From assembly GCA_018261955.1 (NCBI GenBank), contig JAGTRK010000005.1, positions 75,748-99,747 of the forward strand: a stretch of 24,000 nt of DNA. The letters run 5' to 3'. Made by a program: the position numbers and the translations under genes. The number at the start of each line of letters is the position of its first letter. Within the stretch, counting starts at the first letter, position 1. The notes beneath the pieces were generated by a model. The model was not told where the DNA came from and searched no databases. It worked only from the letters and a program-made list of their open reading frames with translations. The DNA comes from Burkholderiaceae bacterium (GTDB lineage Bacteria > Pseudomonadota > Gammaproteobacteria > Burkholderiales > Burkholderiaceae). Of the stretch, positions 2,503 through 11,402 are shown one piece after another.

Positions 2503-2725
2503 GGTTTTATGGATGAATTTGGGATGTGTTATTGTACAGATTTATGCCTTTGCACAGGGTAAAAATCCGTCGAAAATGCGCAAAAAACACCAAACAATTG
2601 TGTTTGCTCTCAGGTAGAATGCCCCGAGTATTTCAAGGTAGAATGTTGCGGATATGACTGTACGAAATACGTTAAACCAGTGAATCTCGTTCATTGCTTT
2701 AACTTATTTTACTTTGGAGCTTGAT

Positions 2726-5104
2726 ATGAACTCAACCCTTAATGTTCAACCGTTTGAACAGTTACGCAACACAGATGTCGAGTCGGTTGGCGGTAAAAAC
2801 GCCTCGTTGGGCGAAATGATTTCGCAATTGGCCAATGCAGGTGTGCGCGTGCCGACAGGTTTTGCCACGACTGCGCAGGCGTTTCGTGATTTTCTGCACC
2901 ACAACAATTTAACCGAGCGCATTGCCGCGCGATTGGAAGGGTTGAACGTTGATGATGTGCGTGTCTTGGCTCAAGTTGGCGAAGAAATTCGCTCATGGGT
3001 GATTGATGCGCCGTTGCAACCCGCGCTCGAAGCCGACATTCGCGCGCAGTTTGCTCAATTGACCCAAAACGATGCAACGGGTTTGTCGTTCGCGGTGCGT
3101 TCATCGGCGACTGCTGAGGATTTGCCCGATGCGTCGTTCGCAGGGCAGCAAGAGAGTTACCTCAATGTTTCAGGCATCGAAGACGTACTTGATAAAATCA
3201 AACATGTGTTTGCCTCGTTGTACAACGATCGTGCGATTGCTTATCGTGTGCATAAAGGCTTTACCCACGCTGAAGTGGCACTGTCTGCGGGTGTTCAGCG
3301 CATGGTGCGCTCGGATTTGGCTGCCTCTGGCGTGATGTTTACCATGGACACCGAAAGCGGTTTTGACCAAGTGGTGTTCATCACATCGAGTTATGGTTTG
3401 GGCGAAACCGTGGTACAGGGCGCGGTCAATCCCGATGAATTTTATGTGTTTAAGCCCACACTGAAAGAAGGTAAACCTGCCATCATTCGCCGCGCGATGG
3501 GTAGCAAACTCATCAAGATGGAATTCACGCAAGCGGGTGAAGAAGGTCGTGTGAAAACGGTGGATGTGCCTTTGGAATTGCGTAATCGCTACTCACTCAA
3601 CGATGAAGATGTATCCGAATTGGCACGCTATGCGATGATTATCGAAGCGCATTACGGTCGTGCTATGGACATCGAGTGGGGTAAAGACGGCGTGGATGGC
3701 AAACTGTATATCTTGCAAGCGCGCCCTGAAACCGTGAAAAGTCAAGCCAAAGGCAAAGCCGAGCAACGTTTCGCCCTGAAAACCAAAGGCTCCAACGTCA
3801 CCGTGCTGACCACGGGGCGTGCGATTGGGCAAAAAATTGGCACGGGTGCGGTGCGTGTGATACACGACCCATCCGAAATGGAGCGCGTACAAGCAGGCGA
3901 TATTCTCGTGGCGGATATGACTGACCCGAACTGGGAACCCGTGATGAAACGTGCAGCGGCGATTGTCACCAACCGTGGTGGGCGCACCTGTCATGCCGCG
4001 ATTATCGCGCGTGAACTCGGTGTACCCGCGGTGGTCGGCTGTGGCAATGCGACTGAGGTTTTGAAAGACGGTACGCTCGTGACCGTATCCTGTGCCGAAG
4101 GTGATGAGGGTAAAGTGTATGACGGCATCCTTGAGACCGAAGTCACCGAAGTCTCGCGCGGTGCGTTGCCCAACATCGGCACAAAAATCATGATGAACGT
4201 CGGCAATCCGCAATTGGCATTTGATTTTTGCCAACTACCCAATGCAGGCGTGGGCTTGGCGCGTTTGGAGTTCGTGATTAACAACAACATTGGTGTGCAC
4301 CCGACCGCGATTTTGCAGTATCCGAACATTGATGCCGACCTGAAAAAAGCGGTTGAATCGGTGGCGCGCGGTCATGCGAATCCACGCGCGTTTTATGTTG
4401 ATAAAGTGGTGGAAGGCGTGGCGACGATTGCAGCGGCGTTTTATCCAAAACCCGTGATTGTGCGTCTGTCGGATTTTAAATCCAACGAATATAAAAAACT
4501 CATCGGCGGTTCGCGCTATGAGCCTGATGAAGAAAATCCAATGCTCGGTTTCCGTGGGGCGGCGCGTTATATTTCAGAAGATTTTGCACCTGCCTTTGCG
4601 ATGGAGTGTGAAGCGATTAAACGCGTGCGCGATGAAATGGGTTTGACCAATGTCGAAATCATGGTGCCGTTCGTGCGCACGGTGCCACAGGGTCAAGCGG
4701 TGATTGATTTGCTCGCCAAACAAGGGTTGGTGCAGGGCGTGAACGGCTTGCGCGTGATTATGATGTGCGAAGTGCCATCGAACGCGATTTTGGCAGAAGA
4801 ATTCTTAAACATCTTTGATGGCTTCTCGATTGGCTCGAACGATTTGACGCAATTGACCTTGGGCTTGGATAGAGACTCAGGCATGGAATTGCTTGCCAAA
4901 GATTTTGACGAACGCGACCCTGCGGTTAAATTCATGTTGCAACGCGCGATTAGCACGGCTCGGCGCATGAATAAATACGTTGGGATTTGCGGACAAGGCC
5001 CTTCGGATCATTTGGACTTTGCCAAATGGTTGGTGGACGAGGGCATTTCCTCGATTTCGCTCAACCCTGATACGGTGGTGGCGACTTGGCAGGCATTGGC
5101 GTAA
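2726..5104 (+). CDS. ppsA: Phosphoenolpyruvate synthase (pyruvate, water dikinase)
   Basis: 792 aa from ATG 2726. The track start at 2714 is a TTG; GGAG at 2716-2719 is a good SD for the ATG at 2726. Contains the phosphohistidine motif [15 protein letters not shown] and a C-terminal PEP-utilising TIM-barrel region. Confidence 0.95.
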
Positions 5105-5113
5105 TTTAATTCA

Positions 5114-5935
5114 ATGGCAGAAACCATCGTCCACGCATTGCAATCCTGTGCTTTGCCATTATTGGAAGCGCGTATGCTCATGCAGCACGTGACGGGCTAT
5201 TCTCGCGTTCAACTTTTGACCCACGATACCGAGGTGCTGAACGATGCGCAGCAAGTGCATTGGCAAACTTTGATCGCGCGACGCGTTCAGGGTGAGCCGA
5301 TGGCGTATATCATTGGCGAGCGCGAGTTCTATGGACGAATGTTTGCCGTCAATCCCAATGTATTGATTCCCCGCCCCGATACCGAAACCCTGATTGATGC
5401 GGTGTTGTCAGATTTTGGCGCGCAAGCATTGTCTGCGATTGACTTGGGTACAGGTTCTGGGGCGATTGCGCTCACGCTGGCGGCGGAGCGACCGAGTTGG
5501 AATGTATGTGCCACAGATATTTCAGCTCAAGCACTTGAAGTGGCGCGCCAAAACTCGCAGCGTCTGAATACCTCAGTGCGATTTTTTGAGGGTGATTGGT
5601 GGGCTGCTTTGCCTGCCGATGAATCGTTAAAATTTCACATCGTGGTCAGTAATCCGCCGTATATTGAGGCGAACGATGAACATTTATCCGAGGGCGATGT
5701 GCGTTTTGAGCCCATCGGTGCGTTGACCGACGGTGCGGATGGCTTGCAGCACTACCGCCGCATACTGTATGACGTGGCGCGGTATTTACATACGAATGGC
5801 GCGGTGTATTTTGAACATGGGTATAATCAAGGCGCGTCAGTGCGGGGTATTTTGAGCGAAGCGAATTTTACCCAAGTGCGCACAATTCAAGACTTGTCGG
5901 GCAACGATCGGGTCAGCACAGGAATTTTAAAATAA
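5114..5935 (+). CDS. prmC: Release-factor glutamine N5-methyltransferase
   Basis: 273 aa. SAM-binding DLGTGSGAIAL and catalytic NPPY (VSNPPYI). HemK/PrmC layout. Confidence 0.9.
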   Translation: MAETIVHALQSCALPLLEARMLMQHVTGYSRVQLLTHDTEVLNDAQQVHWQTLIARRVQGEPMAYIIGEREFYGRMFAVNPNVLIPRPDTETLIDAVLSDFGAQALSAIDLGTGSGAIALTLAAERPSWNVCATDISAQALEVARQNSQRLNTSVRFFEGDWWAALPADESLKFHIVVSNPPYIEANDEHLSEGDVRFEPIGALTDGADGLQHYRRILYDVARYLHTNGAVYFEHGYNQGASVRGILSEANFTQVRTIQDLSGNDRVSTGILK

Positions 5936-5966
5936 TTTTTAATAGCGTCAAAAAAGGTTTACTTTT

Positions 5967-6632
5967 ATGGCACGCCAAGCACGCGTCTATATTCCCAACA
6001 CCGCGCAACTGGTTCAAGTGCGTGGCAACAACAACGCACCCGTCTTTTTTCAGCCAGAAGACTACGCACAGTGGCAATCGATTGCACGCACCATCGCGCC
6101 AGTCCATGCGGTGGACATCCACGCCTACGCGCTCCTGCCGACACAAATCAATTTACTCGTGACCGCGCACAACGAGCACGCGCTGGGCGCACTGATGCAG
6201 GACTTGGGGCGGCGTTATGTGCGCTACATCAACCGTACCCATCAGCGCACGGGTACATTGTGGGAGGGGCGTTACCGCACCGCATTTATTCAAAACACGC
6301 CGTACGTCATGCGTGCTTATGTATGGCTCGACAGTGGTTTGAATGGACAAAGCGAATACACCTCGGCACTGCGCCACCTCGGACAACACAACCCAGAATT
6401 CATCCGTGACCACAGCGAATATTGGCAGCTGGGCAACACACCGTTTGAACGCCAATCTGCGTATGCCCAACGCATGAGCGAGGGCTTGGTATCGGTGCAC
6501 AGCTCAGAATTAGAACGTGCAGTGCAAACGGGTTGGGCATTGGGCGATACCGAGTTCATCGCAAAGACCGAACAAGCCATCGGGAGGCGCATCAGCCCCG
6601 CGCCGAGGGGGCGACCGAAGAAGCTGGGTTGA
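5967..6632 (+). CDS. IS200/RAYT-like Y1 (HUH) transposase homologue, apparently catalytically degenerate
   Basis: 221 aa. It aligns, from my memory of the COG1943 family consensus, at MARxxRxYxP..., GRRYVRYINRxxxRTGTLWEGRY and a C-terminal PxPRGRPKK. The HUH box position reads HAYALLPTQINLLV (Q-I-N where H-hydrophobic-H is expected). Confidence 0.75.
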   Translation: MARQARVYIPNTAQLVQVRGNNNAPVFFQPEDYAQWQSIARTIAPVHAVDIHAYALLPTQINLLVTAHNEHALGALMQDLGRRYVRYINRTHQRTGTLWEGRYRTAFIQNTPYVMRAYVWLDSGLNGQSEYTSALRHLGQHNPEFIRDHSEYWQLGNTPFERQSAYAQRMSEGLVSVHSSELERAVQTGWALGDTEFIAKTEQAIGRRISPAPRGRPKKLG

Positions 6633-6633
6633 T

Positions 6634-6662
6634 TTGAGTTTTTTATGTTGCGGGTGCATAAT
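6634..6662 (+). promoter_or_regulatory. Candidate sigma70 promoter reading into the cassette array
   Basis: TTGAGT (6634-6639), 17-bp spacer, CATAAT (6657-6662), with TG immediately upstream (6655-6656). It lies in an AT-rich spacer. Sequence match only. Confidence 0.25.
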
Positions 6663-6767
6663 GTGCGCGGGATTTGAAAATAAAGGATGTTTTTTGAATA
6701 TGATGAATAGGCGCAATATTCGATACAGTCGTCTAAAAATTTTTTATTTTCAAAGTCTTAATTTTAA

Positions 6768-6836
6768 ACAAAACAGGATATAAGGCGTAGCTGGGACAGA
6801 ATATGCGTCATTTTTGCCGTATATCCTACGTTAGGT
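6768..6836 (+). other. Left junction of the cassette array: atypical attC-like or attI-like site ending in GTTAGGT
   Basis: ACAAAAC (6768-6774), then AGGATATA (6775-6782), which is an inverted repeat of TATATCCT (6820-6827), then ac + GTTAGGT (6830-6836, fits GTTRRRY). The R''-like box is only 5/7 complementary to R' and no spacer is present, so it is not a canonical attC. Confidence 0.4.
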
Positions 6837-6841
6837 GCTCT

Positions 6842-7180
6842 ATGCCAAGACAACGCACTGATTACGAAAAAGCAGTTGGACAATTAATCTCGGCCATTCA
6901 AAAAGAGTGGACGAAACACGCCGGTGAAGGGGATATTGAAAAGCAAAGTGAGGCTGTAATGTATCGCGCGCATCACTTTTACAAAACAGAAACCCAAGCA
7001 GATTTTGAGCAGTTGCTTCAGGGCGGCGATATAGAAAGGTATCTCGGTTCTGATTGGGTAAAAAAACATCCGCAAATTCGGCAGTATTTTAAGCACGTCG
7101 AAAACTCAGTCACACCTAACCCTGCGCTCAAGCAGGACGCGCCTTCGGCGCGCCTCTTAGCTACACGTTGGGCATCATAG
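6842..7180 (+). CDS. Cassette 1 ORF: hypothetical 112-aa protein, no recognised family
   Basis: ATG 6842 is the first start inside the cassette; the track start at 6803 lies left of the G|TT junction. AGGTG (6833-6837) is a possible SD. The ORF reads through the attC and stops at TAG 7178-7180, 13 nt into cassette 2. Confidence 0.55.
   Translation: MPRQRTDYEKAVGQLISAIQKEWTKHAGEGDIEKQSEAVMYRAHHFYKTETQADFEQLLQGGDIERYLGSDWVKKHPQIRQYFKHVENSVTPNPALKQDAPSARLLATRWAS
7114..7173 (+). other. attC recombination site of cassette 1 (60 nt)
   Basis: ACCTAAC (R'', fits RYYYAAC), cctgc, GCT[C]AAG[C]AGG (L'' with two extrahelical bases) pairing with CCTCTTAGC (L'), a central GC hairpin CGCGC/GCGCG around the cttcg loop, tacac, then GTTGGGC (R', fits GTTRRRY). 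Size and layout resemble classical 60-bp attC sites. Confidence 0.8.
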
Positions 7181-7189
7181 GATCGCGCT

Positions 7190-8092
7190 ATGCGGTGCAT
7201 CTTCTGCAAACAGGACTCCTCCTCGTCTCGTAGCGTTGAGCACATCATGCCGGAGTCGATTGGAAGCAAGAGACGAGTACTGCCCCGTGGCGTAGTCTGC
7301 GACAAATGCAATAACTACTTCGCTCGTGAAATCGAAGGCCCCGTGCTCAGTCACCCCTCAATGAGGAACATCAGGGCTTGGCACCAAGTTCCAAATAAGA
7401 GAGGAAAAATACCGGCATTACAAGGCAATATCGGCGGCACTGATATTGCTGTTGGCTTTCGCCGAGGACGCGACGGAAAACTCGAAATTGAGCCGGAGAA
7501 ACAGCGAAACCAAGAACATGTTACAGCTGAATGGAAAGCTGGTCTCCCAAATGGGTTCATATTCATTGTCGACATGGCCCCACCCAAACGAGAGATGTCT
7601 CGCTTTCTATGCAAGATGGCAATGGAAACTGTCGCTGAACTTCTGACGCACAACGAGGGTGGGACAGAAGCGATGGTTGACGAGAGTTACTTTGACAACA
7701 TTCGAACCTATGTCCGCTATGGAAACAACCTCACTGAGTGGCCGTATTCACAGCGGCGCATATATCCCGATACGACGTTAATGCGTCACCCCGACACAAA
7801 AAAGTGGGTTCCAGTTGGTTTCGGCTGCACAGTATTTTCGACGAAACGCTTCGAAACACTGTTCGTGTTCTGCCTCTACGGTATTGAGTTTGTTCTCAAT
7901 GTCGGTGGCCCCTCTATTCGTGGCTACGAAGAATGGTTGGAAGACCACGGATACATCAGCCCAATGGTTGAACGTCTTGGCTGTCGTCTCGTAACTGAGG
8001 GTGAAGGAAAATCACAACGACACTATCTTCATGGCGACTTCAATTTGCAGAATGGTTTCGCGTTTGACGAACGCCACGGGTACCGCCCATGA
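7190..8092 (+). CDS. Cassette 2 ORF: HNH-motif (beta-beta-alpha-Me, zinc-ribbon) nuclease domain protein with an uncharacterised about 230-aa C-terminal region
   Basis: 300 aa. AGGA SD at 7179-7182. N-terminus MRCIFCK...SVEHIMPESIG...VVCDKCNNYF gives C3xxC6, E17-H18 and C37xxC40-N41, the pattern of CxxC...H...CxxC-N HNH endonucleases. I recognise no motif in the remainder. The stop is 2 nt before the attC. Confidence 0.8.
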   Translation: MRCIFCKQDSSSSRSVEHIMPESIGSKRRVLPRGVVCDKCNNYFAREIEGPVLSHPSMRNIRAWHQVPNKRGKIPALQGNIGGTDIAVGFRRGRDGKLEIEPEKQRNQEHVTAEWKAGLPNGFIFIVDMAPPKREMSRFLCKMAMETVAELLTHNEGGTEAMVDESYFDNIRTYVRYGNNLTEWPYSQRRIYPDTTLMRHPDTKKWVPVGFGCTVFSTKRFETLFVFCLYGIEFVLNVGGPSIRGYEEWLEDHGYISPMVERLGCRLVTEGEGKSQRHYLHGDFNLQNGFAFDERHGYRP

Positions 8093-8093
8093 T

Positions 8094-8162
8094 GCCCAAC
8101 CCATCAATCGAGCGGACCTCGCGCGAAAAGCCGCGCAGCGCCGGTGAACTCAAACGTTAGTT
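8094..8162 (+). other. attC recombination site of cassette 2 (69 nt)
   Basis: GCCCAAC (R''), ccatc, an imperfect GC-rich palindrome (GCGCG 8121-8125 pairs with CGCGC 8132-8136), GGTGAACTcaaac, then GTTAGTT (R'). The 3' half TGAACTCAAACGTTAG closely resembles the 3' end of the aadA-type attC as I remember it. The L''/L' pairing is less clean than in the first attC. Confidence 0.7.
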
Positions 8163-8232
8163 CACCAGCCATAATACCTAGGATAGATTGTGGGTCTTTT
8201 GTTGGGGTTTAAGTCAACTATTCACCACTAAT

Positions 8233-9348
8233 CTACTTATACTTCCGCAAACTCGGCGGACTTTGATATTTCGTAATCGGTGTCGCCGAAAATTTCATCG
8301 GATTACCGACCAAGCGATAACCCTCCTCAGTGCTCACCACCATGTCCCGCGACAACAGTTGCGCATCTTTAAACACGCGGTCGATGGTGTTGATGGGCCC
8401 GCAGGGAAAGCCGTATTGCTCGCCGAGCGTCACCCATTCATCAATGTTTTTGCCCATCATGTGCGGACTCAATGCGGTTTCCAACTCGGCACGGTGCGCC
8501 ACGCGTGCATTGTTGGTGGTAAAGCGTGCGTCGCTTGCCAACTCTGCGCAGCCAGCCGACTGACAAAATTGTACAAACTGCGCATCGTTGCCGATGGCGA
8601 GCATGATGTAGCCGTCTTTGACCCTCATCGGTTGATAGGGCGCAATCGATGGGTGGGACGAGCCTTGGCGCATGGGGATTTGCCCCGACATTAAGTAAGC
8701 CGAGGCTTGATTGGCGAGCATCGCGGCTTGTACGTCAAACAGCGCGATGTCGACGTGTTGCCCTTGCCCCGTGACGTGCCGATGGTTGACCGCAGCGAGT
8801 ATGGCGGTGGTGGCGTACAGCGCGGTCATGAGGTCAACCACCGCCACGCCGACTTTTTGCGGCGCGCCGTCCGCCTCGCCCGTGATGCTCATCAATCCGC
8901 CCATCGCTTGAATCAGCGCGTCGTAGCCAGGGCGGTCTTTGTACGGGCCGCTTTGTCCAAAGCCTGTGATGGAGCAGTAAATAATATTTGGGTTGATTTG
9001 CACAATGCTGGCGTAGTCCAAACCGTATTTTTTCAGACCACTGACTTTGTAGTTTTCGACCAATATGTCTGCAGTTTTAATCAATTCGATGAGTTGCGCG
9101 CGGTCAGTTTCAATGGTGAAATCGAGTAGGATATTGGTCTTATTGCGATTGGCACAAAAATAATAAGTCGCGTCTTGAGAGCCATCGGCTCGTTTGACAA
9201 ACGGCGGCCCCCAGCGACGCGTGTCGTCACCTTTTGGGTGTTCGATTTTAATCACGTTTGCGCCCATATCCGCGAGGTTTTGCGTGGCGAATGGTCCCGC
9301 GAGGATGCGCGACATATCAACAATGGTGAGGTTGGACAATGCAGACAT
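8233..9348 (-). CDS. Family III CoA-transferase (CaiB/BaiF family)
   Basis: 371 aa. N-terminal LTIVDMSRILAGPFATQNLADMGANVIKIEHP signature typical of the family. The substrate cannot be determined from sequence. Confidence 0.85.
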   Translation of the reverse strand: MSALSNLTIVDMSRILAGPFATQNLADMGANVIKIEHPKGDDTRRWGPPFVKRADGSQDATYYFCANRNKTNILLDFTIETDRAQLIELIKTADILVENYKVSGLKKYGLDYASIVQINPNIIYCSITGFGQSGPYKDRPGYDALIQAMGGLMSITGEADGAPQKVGVAVVDLMTALYATTAILAAVNHRHVTGQGQHVDIALFDVQAAMLANQASAYLMSGQIPMRQGSSHPSIAPYQPMRVKDGYIMLAIGNDAQFVQFCQSAGCAELASDARFTTNNARVAHRAELETALSPHMMGKNIDEWVTLGEQYGFPCGPINTIDRVFKDAQLLSRDMVVSTEEGYRLVGNPMKFSATPITKYQSPPSLRKYK

Positions 9349-9432
9349 TTTTTAATATCTTTCAAAGTGTGTGGGATGGCAAAGCGTTATAATCGCACGA
9401 GTGGTAACCCCAAACAAGGCTTTAGTGCAAAT

Positions 9433-9951
9433 ATGAGTGATGAAAACCCAATAACGCAAACAACCCCATTTGAACAAATCGGTGGCGCGCCACGCATTCA
9501 AGAACTGGTGACGCATTTTTATGATTTGATGGAAATTGAACCCAAATACGCCGATTTACGCGCCACGCACCACGAAAATTTAACCGTGACGCGTGAAAAA
9601 TTGTTCGATTTTTTGAATGGCTGGCTCGGTGGCCAGCAGTTATACGTTGAAAAATACGGGCATCCGCGTTTAAAAGCGCGCCACATGCCATTCAAAATCG
9701 GCGTGACTGAGCGCGACCAGTGGGTGGCGTGCATGGCGCAGGCGATGCGCGAAATTGGCGTTGAGGAAAACCTGTTCCAAAAACTCATACTTTCGTTTTA
9801 CGGCACAGCCGAATGGATGCGTAATCAATCCGATGCGGTCGAGGGCGAAGCACGTATGCCGAACCAAGTTGGGATTGAGATTACGGGCGTGCCGAACGCG
9901 ACCACGCTGAAGTTGCAAGCCATTGCCCAAAAATACGAGGTAAAAATTTAA
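9433..9951 (+). CDS. glbO: Group II truncated haemoglobin (trHbO-like)
   Basis: The track ORF starts at 9175 but overlaps the divergent CoA-transferase gene. ATG 9433 gives MSDENPITQTTPFEQIGG...FYDLM...GHPRLKARHMPFKIG..ERDQW, which matches the trHbO pattern. ATG 9376 is an alternative start. The protein has an about 35-aa C-terminal extension. Confidence 0.75.
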   Translation: MSDENPITQTTPFEQIGGAPRIQELVTHFYDLMEIEPKYADLRATHHENLTVTREKLFDFLNGWLGGQQLYVEKYGHPRLKARHMPFKIGVTERDQWVACMAQAMREIGVEENLFQKLILSFYGTAEWMRNQSDAVEGEARMPNQVGIEITGVPNATTLKLQAIAQKYEVKI

Positions 9952-11402
9952 TGAGTGCGCAAACTTTATTGATGCTACTGATTGCGCTCATCGTTTTGAA
10001 CGTCTTGCTTGTGGCGTTGGTAGCGTTTGCCTTTGTGCGCACGGGTCAGCAGCGCGCTCAATTGTTGGAACAAAAACTCTTGCACCAGCAGTCGCTCACA
10101 CAATTGCAGCAAGTCACGCAGGATGTCGATGCGGGCTTTGAAAAAACCTTTGAGCAAAGCACCCAGTATTTGTCGGCATTGCGCGAACATAGCGGCGCGC
10201 TGGCGCGTGAGCAGCGCATGGAATTGGGGCAAATCATCAATCATGCACAAACGCAAACCACCAACGAACTCAAGGCTCTGCGCGAGAACCAAACCACCGA
10301 AGCACAAACGGCGCGCGAGCATTTGCTCGCGCAATTGACCCACAACAGCACCCAGCAATTGCTACAGTTGCAACAACTCAAAGAATCCACCGAGCGCAAT
10401 TTAAACCAAATGCGCGAAAATATGGAACAACGCCTGACTAGCATCGAGTCGAACAACACCAAAAAACTTGAAGAAATGCGGGCGACGGTGGACGAAAAAC
10501 TGCACGCCACGCTGGAGCAACGCCTCGGCGAATCGTTCAAACAAGTGTCCGACCGATTGGAGCAAGTCCACCGCGGTTTGGGCGAAATGCAAACCCTCGC
10601 GGTTGGCGTGGGCGATTTACAGCGCGTGCTGACCAATGTCAAAACCCGTGGCAACTGGGGCGAGATGCAGTTGGCGAACTTGCTTGAAAACGTGTTCACG
10701 CCCGACCGCTATGCTGCCAACGTCAAAGTCAAACCCAACAGCAATGAGATGGTCGATTTTGCCATCAAACTACCGGGACGCAGTGAGCATACCGACGAGG
10801 TGGTGTGGTTGCCTGTGGACGCGAAATTCCCCAAAGAGCAGTACGAGCGGATGCAAAACGCACAAGATGCGGCGGACGCGGATGCCTTCGATGCGGCGCG
10901 TAAAGAGTTGTTTACCCAAATCAAACTCGAAGCCAAATCCATCAGCGAAAAATACATCAGTCCGCCGCACACCACGGATTTTGCCGTGATGTTTTTGCCG
11001 ACTGAGGGCTTGTATGCCGAAGTGGCGCGCGAGGCGGGGTTGCTCGATTTATTGCAAAGAGAATACCGTATTGTGGTTTCAGGACCAACGACCTTGACGG
11101 CGTTGCTCAACAGTTTGCACATGGGCTTTAGAACCTTGGCGATGGAAAAACGCGCTTCTGAAGTGTGGCGGGTGCTGGGTGCGGTCAAAACCGAGTTTGG
11201 TAAATTTGGCGATGTGCTGGCAAAAACCAAACAAAAACTCGAATCCGCCGCAGGTGAAATTTCCAAAGCAGAAACCCGCACCCGCGCGATGAGCCGTGCC
11301 TTGAGCGGGGTCGAACAAATCGAGGGCGATGCGGCGGTGCAATTGTTGGGTTTGGGTGAAGAAGAACCCAAAGCGAGCGAAGGGCAAAATACCTTGTTGT
11401 AA
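9951..11402 (+). CDS. rmuC: DNA recombination protein RmuC
   Basis: 483 aa. N-terminal TM helix, a long Q/E-rich coiled coil, and a conserved RGNWGEMQLANLLE block with a C-terminal nuclease-like region. The start overlaps the glbO stop (TAATG). Confidence 0.9.
   Translation: MSAQTLLMLLIALIVLNVLLVALVAFAFVRTGQQRAQLLEQKLLHQQSLTQLQQVTQDVDAGFEKTFEQSTQYLSALREHSGALAREQRMELGQIINHAQTQTTNELKALRENQTTEAQTAREHLLAQLTHNSTQQLLQLQQLKESTERNLNQMRENMEQRLTSIESNNTKKLEEMRATVDEKLHATLEQRLGESFKQVSDRLEQVHRGLGEMQTLAVGVGDLQRVLTNVKTRGNWGEMQLANLLENVFTPDRYAANVKVKPNSNEMVDFAIKLPGRSEHTDEVVWLPVDAKFPKEQYERMQNAQDAADADAFDAARKELFTQIKLEAKSISEKYISPPHTTDFAVMFLPTEGLYAEVAREAGLLDLLQREYRIVVSGPTTLTALLNSLHMGFRTLAMEKRASEVWRVLGAVKTEFGKFGDVLAKTKQKLESAAGEISKAETRTRAMSRALSGVEQIEGDAAVQLLGLGEEEPKASEGQNTLL

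Follow-up and report, generated by a model that had tools for sequence, protein, structure and literature searches.

Type IV restriction enzymes with an HNH nuclease and a fused reader (EVE-HNH VcaM4I, TspA15I, ScoMcrA, and McrA) join an HNH/His-Me nuclease and a non-catalytic region in one polypeptide, have no cognate methyltransferase, and occur in mobile DNA and restriction-modification (R-M) neighborhoods (PMC6765204, PMC7897488, PMC7641849). ASCH falls within the PUA-like superfamily, members of which read modified bases and pair with HNH in modification-dependent restriction enzymes (PMC7641849, PMC6765204, PMC7897488). In Septu, the HNH protein PtuB is partnered with the ATPase PtuA, and HNH proteins partnered with AAA15/21 ATPases have been annotated by the Pfam family HNH_5 (PF14279) (PMC11464382). 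PDC-M11 is a PADLOC candidate system consisting of M11A, of ~500 amino acids (aa), and M11B, an ASCH protein. It is already known that compact defense genes are enriched in integron cassettes (bioRxiv 10.1101/2024.07.02.601686) and that, in metagenomes, PF14279 ranks among the abundant functions associated with integrons (PMC7370490); the V. cholerae systems Sirona and Nemetona are single small cassette genes (Darracq et al., bioRxiv 2024). Here we describe a 300-aa HNH protein, called HNHx, encoded in a 24,000-nucleotide (nt) stretch of a Burkholderiaceae bacterium (GCA_018261955.1, contig JAGTRK010000005.1, positions 75,748 to 99,747), referred to below as the window.

HNHx represents a well-delimited family with a ~245-aa domain of no known match, carried on a truly mobile cassette and showing consistent circumstantial links to defense; it is not a new principle. 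We tentatively favor a reading in which HNHx acts on its own as a restriction-type nuclease against phages or mobile elements.

The type IV HNH enzymes are similar to HNHx in their single polypeptide, their lack of a cognate methyltransferase, and their mobile and R-M surroundings, and a further likeness comes through a shorter sister subfamily of HNHx that is operonic with an ASCH (PUA-like) protein. HNHx differs from these enzymes in that its HNH module is N-terminal and ~55 aa long, and its C-terminal region (C-region), unlike the type IV readers, shows no similarity to PUA, SRA, EVE, or DUF3427 by sequence or by Foldseek. HNHx and PtuB share an HNH_5-type module, but the C-region is unrelated to PtuB, and the neighbors of HNHx are a 112-aa cassette open reading frame (ORF) and a CoA-transferase gene, with no PtuA-type ATPase. 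An identification of HNHx as PtuB was rejected, as the PtuB profile matched only at E = 0.054 and as one locus, L018, carries a complete pair of PtuA and a PtuB-like protein next to an HNHx homologue, so that the two are distinct proteins. The sister subfamily adjoins M11A/M11B in many phyla, whereas HNHx has an extra 40-aa tail and stands alone. Sirona and Nemetona, like HNHx, show His-Me-type similarity and also occur outside integrons in many genera; compared by description only, they are distantly HNH-like (type II restriction endonuclease and NinG), in contrast to the clear HNH_5 domain of HNHx. No protein named V. cholerae was found among the 120 relatives closest to the V. mimicus homologue, and HNHx is unlikely to be identical to either system. 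On these sequence comparisons, HNHx belongs to no PADLOC v2 system, nor to Septu, PDC-M11, or the homing endonucleases.

The HNHx gene and the parts of its product are located as follows.
7190 to 8092, plus strand: HNHx ORF, 300 aa
7179 to 7182, plus strand: AGGA, a plausible Shine-Dalgarno sequence 7 nt 5' of the ATG, kept in the Methylotenera contig L001
7196 to 7354, plus strand: HNH_5/His-Me finger module, residues 3 to 55, with Cys 3/6/37/40, E17-H18, N41, and E49, delimited by Pfam, conservation, and the model
7355 to 7966, plus strand: family-specific alpha/beta region, residues 56 to 259, a conserved core common to the shorter sister subfamily
7967 to 8089, plus strand: C-terminal tail, residues 260 to 300, confined to the ~300-aa stand-alone subfamily

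The translation contains C3, C6, E17, H18, C37, C40, and N41. A preliminary description of the locus had named the same ORF and residues, an HNH pattern in the first ~45 aa, and a Shine-Dalgarno sequence belonging to the gene itself, all of which were borne out. Pfam HNH_5 matched residues 3 to 55 (E = 1.3e-10; 41.5 bits against a curated cutoff of 27.5), and the same profile was matched by 33 of 33 aligned relatives. In the alignment of these 33 sequences (49 to 90% identity), C37, C40, and N41 were invariant, while C3, C6, E17, H18, and E49 were conserved at ≥90%, E49 being nearly invariant. An AlphaFold2 model built from this alignment (predicted local distance difference test [pLDDT], 89.5; predicted template modeling score [pTM], 0.88) showed short strands around H18 and V30-L31 and then a helix at residues 38 to 53 beginning at C37-N41, which is the beta-beta-alpha-metal layout (local pLDDT, 80 to 94). 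The N-terminal 64 aa searched alone gave nothing meaningful. HNHx is thus, as judged from Pfam, conservation, and model, a member of the HNH_5 clade of His-Me finger proteins, and it is predicted to be an active, zinc-stabilized His-Me DNA endonuclease.

Residues 56 to 300 had no match in Pfam, NCBIfam, PADLOC, PHROGs, or a PDB sequence profile. Foldseek searches with the full HNHx model against PDB and BFVD, and with the C-domain model against PDB, gave no match at E < 0.06, with best E values of ~0.07 to 0.2 and TM-scores of <0.2; recurrent matches to longin/roadblock-type and RnlA/TBP-like alpha/beta domains were insignificant, so no fold was assigned. The remark in the preliminary description that the remaining ~250 aa match nothing held in all of these searches, and the AlphaFold and Foldseek check proposed there returned a beta-beta-alpha-Me layout together with a C-region lacking a known-fold match. 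The tail was delimited from relatives at 35 to 41% identity, which align to HNHx residues 1 to 259 alone, and most matches in the C-region profile search stop at profile position 204. When a profile of the C-region only was searched against 1.84 billion representative proteins, 424 clusters were found. All proteins in the best 150 of these 424 clusters are ≤315 aa long, and among the listed matches near full length the region begins ~55 to 60 residues in, near residue 57; none of the matches listed (150 of 424 clusters) had the C-region without the ~55-aa N-terminal module or joined to another effector. Modeled alone, the C-region reached a pLDDT of 79.8, compared with 89.5 in whole HNHx. The one architecture among the listed matches and the lower pLDDT of the isolated region suggest that the C-region is an integral, always-fused part of the enzyme. 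Across the matches listed, the architecture of HNHx is fixed, and the C-region does not appear as a module that recombines with other effectors. The earlier proposal of a modular sensor gating a toxic nuclease finds no support here.

The same observations bear on an abortive-infection or toxin-type nuclease, in which the C-region would hold the HNH site inactive until a phage cue frees it and indiscriminate DNA degradation would then halt the infected cell. We regard this as a lesser but substantial possibility. It would suit a nuclease encoded by one gene whose cassette carries no immunity partner, and the defense and mobile-element contexts described below fit it as they fit restriction. Several V. 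cholerae cassette defense systems work by growth arrest or lysis (bioRxiv 10.1101/2024.07.02.601686), and in one confident model the C-region and the HNH module are packed together, an arrangement that would be compatible with autoinhibition. However, the C-region is not a shuffled sensor module, given its one architecture among the listed matches, a known sensor fold was not detected with Foldseek, and the sequence itself does not separate gating from target recognition.

In the restriction reading, which we tentatively prefer, the HNH_5 module is permanently joined to the ~245-aa family-specific alpha/beta region, and the whole is shipped as a single cassette gene. The C-region would act as a built-in target-recognition module, and probably also an oligomerization module, that guides the HNH site toward something that marks invading DNA and is missing from host DNA, for example an unusual structure or a modified base, and HNHx would cleave the foreign DNA directly. 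A nuclease that travels alone would have to spare its host, either by cutting only foreign-featured DNA (type IV-like) or by awaiting an infection switch (abortive). With a target feature lacking in host DNA, neither a methyltransferase nor an antitoxin would be needed, and the system would therefore fit one small cassette.

The cassettes at the locus were delimited as follows; attC calls rest on RYYYAAC ... GTTRRRY cores and the folding of bulged, imperfect palindromes.
7168 to 8156, plus strand: cassette 2, the mobile unit with the HNHx gene, 989 nt, from BLASTN to L001 and the inverted repeat
8094 to 8162, plus strand: attC of cassette 2 (GCCCAAC ... GTTAGTT), crossover between G8156 and T8157
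6831 to 7167, plus strand: cassette 1, 337 nt, absent from L001 and from L090, a contig of a close relative
7114 to 7173, plus strand: attC of cassette 1 (ACCTAAC ... GTTGGGC), the last 6 nt being part of cassette 2
6830 to 6836, plus strand: GTTAGGT core at the left junction, crossover between G6830 and T6831, complementary to ACCTAAC at 7114 to 7120

The HNHx gene is the sole ORF of cassette 2, whose crossovers were placed between G7167 and T7168 and between G8156 and T8157. The first bases of an integron cassette come from its own attC. In line with this, GTTGGGC at 7167 to 7173 is complementary to GCCCAAC at 8094 to 8100, both lying within a 15-nt inverted repeat (7167 to 7181 and 8086 to 8100; 93% complementary) whose 3' arm overlaps the HNHx stop codon. 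With its own GTTGGGC core restored, the attC of cassette 2 folds into a bulged, imperfect hairpin (−19.6/−20.0 kcal/mol), which is kept in the L001 copy (−25.6 kcal/mol). The attC of cassette 1 also folds with bulges, at −14.2 kcal/mol as it stands in the array and at −19.1/−19.5 kcal/mol with its own GTTAGGT core. When the whole window was compared with L001 by BLASTN, a single match resulted, 7167 to 8159, at 83.6% identity, with unrelated flanks; the similarity opens at GT.GGGCATCAT and closes at AACGTTA, and the L001 protein is 89% identical to HNHx. The attC folds and the ending of the L001 similarity at the cassette ends agree with the earlier view of HNHx as the sole ORF of a self-contained mobile cassette. 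The span of 7168 to 8162 suggested for it is correct at its start; the crossover lies at 8156, and 8162 takes in the rest of the downstream core.

Outside the ORF, cassette 2 comprises just 22 nt upstream and the attC downstream, leaving no room for an immunity gene. A partnership between HNHx and cassette 1 was ruled out, since cassette 1 is missing from both L001 and L090. The cassette 1 ORF (6843 to 7180, plus strand) encodes 112 aa from an in-cassette ATG, or 125 aa from 6803, and has no Pfam match; it runs through its own attC and stops 13 nt into cassette 2.

The left junction marks the end of chromosomal synteny with L090 and the start of cassette 1. L090, a metagenomic contig found by a protein-anchored search, is syntenic by BLASTN with window positions 5147 to 6833 and 8234 to 9398. 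The chromosomal junction at the cassette site reads ...ATCCTACG up to the crossover, followed by TT. At the same junction, ...ATATCCTACG followed by TT, L090 has GTTATGC and one different cassette, compared with two in the window. This L090 cassette (2570 to 3130) has its own ORF of ~150 to 168 aa and an attC (GCATAAC...GTT) and is unrelated to the window cassettes. An empty or variant site, sought in metagenomes with the left-flank 21-mer, gave no match. A domain scan of ORFs of ≥100 aa across the 24-kb window found no tyrosine-recombinase domain, and an integron integrase in the window was accordingly rejected, so that "integron" here denotes a two-cassette cluster without an integrase. This cluster belongs to the CALIN (cluster of attC sites lacking an integron integrase) or secondary-site type, with strain-variable content between the window and L090. 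It has the attC sites, G/TT boundaries, and mobility of integron cassettes without their platform.

To place HNHx among its relatives, 80 genomic loci were surveyed in addition to the window, 28 of the 300-aa subfamily and 52 of the shorter sister subfamily. Complementary GTT.... / ....AAC cores at the right distance were found for seven members of the 300-aa subfamily, namely, the window, L002 (Desulfatiglandales), L007 (Smithellaceae), L019 and L020 (Vibrio), L021 (Rheinheimera), and L022 (Salinisphaera); L001 and L023 have a degenerate 5' core. The test for attC-type flanks was positive in 9 of the 80 loci, compared with ~1.2 expected from shifted controls. A true array is present in L007, where at least seven attC-like repeats lie 445 to 1,514 nt apart.

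Outside cassettes, neighbors were counted within three genes of the HNHx homologue and included type I R-M subunits, PDC-S19 in L013, and further PtuA, mad2, and methyltransferase matches. In Aquabacterium, the gene order is HsdM-HsdS-PDC-S21-HNHx...HsdR. In L018 (6939 to 11916), a Septu-like pair, consisting of a 642-aa PtuA-type ATPase and a 363-aa PDC-M01B/PtuB-like HNH protein, lies directly 5' of the HNHx homologue; a 340-aa ORF without a PADLOC match comes after, and the stretch could be a compact defense islet. The E. coli homologue (P0064; 59% identity; L081 to L083, 8001 to 8900) is an oppositely oriented cargo gene of an integrative conjugative element (ICE), whose backbone has AcaB/TopoIII on one side and DUF2857/DnaB/ParA/integrase on the other, with DUF3577 also present.

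The family comprises 743 clusters at 90% identity in the protein collection, nearly all of ~280 to 310 aa. That the 281-aa forms are true N-terminal truncations was rejected, as tblastn recovers residues 1 to 300 upstream in L007 and residues 1 to 298 in L009; several loci use GTG starts, and together these observations indicate that the 281-aa forms are start-codon miscalls. The ratio of nonsynonymous to synonymous substitution rates (dN/dS) between the HNHx gene and its L001 orthologue was 0.063, as expected for a gene under purifying selection. One 90%-identity cluster includes Methylotenera, Acidovorax, a Burkholderiaceae metagenome-assembled genome, and Acidithiobacillus, a second includes Vibrio mimicus and Aeromonas veronii, and a third includes Rheinheimera, Pseudoalteromonas, Vibrio, and Salinisphaera. 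Members of these cross-genus clusters are annotated just as "HNH endonuclease" or hypothetical. HNHx evidently moves horizontally between genera, and its distribution is patchy, without a conserved chromosomal context.

An alternative raised by this spread is that HNHx would work selfishly for the cassette or element that carries it rather than for the host, through addiction or through homing-like cutting of arrays or elements without a copy. Free-standing HNH genes are often homing endonucleases (PMC5714182), and the tie of HNHx to mobile DNA, in the form of cassettes, an ICE, and cross-genus spread, is strong. However, the family was found neither in introns or inteins nor in phage genomes (0 matches in 50,697 phage genomes and 6 weak matches in the 2.9 million contigs of IMG/VR), the insertion contexts are very different and share no target sequence, and homologues are embedded in R-M and defense operons. 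We therefore consider a selfish role quite unlikely. Membership in the homing endonucleases was likewise rejected on the contexts (cassettes, defense islands, and the ICE) and the phage result.

The least probable alternative, a very unlikely one, is that HNHx serves the cell as a nuclease for repair, recombination, or particular DNA structures and is mobile just incidentally, or that it is a catalytically inert DNA-binding protein. The HNH fold is also used by repair and recombination enzymes (PMC5714182), and weak Endonuclease_7 similarity (E ~0.09) was seen in 2 of the 33 aligned relatives. Against this stand the conserved catalytic residues, the patchy and horizontally transferred distribution with no conserved chromosomal context, and neighbors that are defense genes rather than repair genes. 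Both the selfish and the repair roles fit the observed contexts poorly. The preliminary description had stated that its proposal would fail for a housekeeping or homing family in a conserved, non-mobile context; the family proved to be neither, given a context that is not conserved, 90% clusters that span genera, and the lack of phage matches.

The sister subfamily (35 to 41% identity to HNHx) consists of proteins of ~260 to 280 aa without the last 40 residues. PDC-M11A-like, PDC-M11B (ASCH), or small P-loop kinase genes are carried by 19 of its 52 loci, and 13 have both A and B. The M11A-like proteins are ~500 aa long, or ~700 aa with N-terminal GNAT and PIN domains (PIN_3), and the small P-loop kinase (AAA_17/18) is often present. 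Most of the genes are co-oriented, at a distance of −47 to +69 nt from the next gene, and this operon-like layout recurs in Bacteroidota, cyanobacteria, Acidobacteriota, Alphaproteobacteria, and Clostridia. The loci concerned, around position 10000 or the match position, are as follows.
L033, L035 to L037, L039 to L041, L043, L048, L058: sister subfamily with PDC-M11-type genes
L061, L062, L064, L065, L068, L070, L072, L078, L080: sister subfamily with PDC-M11-type genes
None of three sister-subfamily members had a PADLOC match. These findings suggest that PDC-M11 has an unlisted third (nuclease) component, the sister subfamily. Neither M11A nor M11B genes were found in the window or near any of the 28 loci of the 300-aa subfamily.

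Four points lead us to prefer restriction, as a tentative first choice, over abortive infection. The C-region behaves as an always-fused part of the enzyme and not as a portable sensor, relatives lie inside type I R-M operons, an ASCH protein shares operons with the sister subfamily, and specificity domains of restriction enzymes typically have no recognizable relatives. These points do not separate the two decisively.

Several observations weigh against a defense nuclease of the restriction type. A recognizable defense neighbor is missing from most of the 28 close-subfamily loci, and the link to defense islands is guilt by association, drawn from the neighbors seen at the surveyed loci. The PDC-M11/ASCH link belongs to the sister subfamily and not to the 300-aa subfamily of the window. 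Among the PADLOC-DB v2.0.0 models, HNHx matched just PtuB, marginally (residues 2 to 43; E = 0.054). A recognition role for the C-region is conjectural, because neither sequence nor Foldseek comparison matched a known DNA- or modification-binding fold. No intI/attI/Pc platform was found beside the cassettes in the window, and a promoter and terminator scan of 6500 to 8400 did no better than shuffled sequences, with no evident cassette promoter.

The proposal of a candidate single-gene defense nuclease thus fared unevenly. The contexts of homologues support it, both in cassettes and in defense neighbors (R-M, PDC-S21, PDC-S19, the Septu-like pair, the ICE, and, for the sister subfamily, PDC-M11), although most close loci lack a recognizable defense neighbor, and no PADLOC v2 model describes HNHx; its sensor-gating part was not supported. 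In a more far-reaching joint reading, the C-region would be an undescribed fold that reads a phage-specific DNA feature (e.g., a hypermodified base), and HNHx would found a new class of one-polypeptide, methyltransferase-free restriction enzymes miniaturized for cassettes. The sister subfamily would be the nuclease arm of PDC-M11, and the subfamily of the window a streamlined, partner-independent derivative of a multigene system. In this complete form, the reading is unlikely.

The two-cassette cluster sits between a RAYT-like gene and the CoA-transferase gene. The former is listed here.
5967 to 6632, plus strand: RAYT-like/IS200-type Y1 transposase homologue, 221 aa (Pfam Y1_Tnp, E = 1.2e-4, just below the cutoff)
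This gene lies directly 5' of the cassette site and is 94% conserved in the syntenic L090. The 200-nt spacer between it and the first cassette contains an AT-rich 20-nt inverted repeat (6673 to 6754; 85% complementary; 42-nt loop), which is kept in outline in L090 and could be a terminator or a recombination-site remnant. On the other side, the 76 nt from the last attC crossover to the CoA-transferase stop codon (8157 to 8232) have no counterpart in L090 and may be left over from an earlier cassette or from the target site. Other scanned neighbors in the window are ppsR, ppsA, a PrmC-like methyltransferase, a globin, RmuC, an aminotransferase, LigA, biotin-synthesis genes, and others; an Rfam scan of the window gave no match. 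RmuC-like domains are also known in defense systems. The RmuC-family gene here (9951 to 11402, plus strand), 1.8 kb downstream in housekeeping surroundings and syntenic in L090, appears to be an ordinary chromosomal copy.

If the restriction reading is true, the antiviral repertoire would gain a new protein fold and a compact defense nuclease of ~900 bp. As reagents, small nucleases that stand alone and bring new specificity domains are also of practical interest. Further leads are the PDC-M11 link, which would provide an effector hypothesis for the PDC-M11/ASCH candidate system, and the strain-variable, integrase-less cassette site, where cassette exchange on the chromosome bears on how far cassettes spread outside integrons. 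With a range that takes in Methylophilaceae, Vibrio, Aeromonas, E. coli ICEs, Desulfobacterota, Bacteroidota, and cyanobacteria, HNHx would be a concrete and widespread example of integron cassettes ferrying defense genes between distant bacteria.

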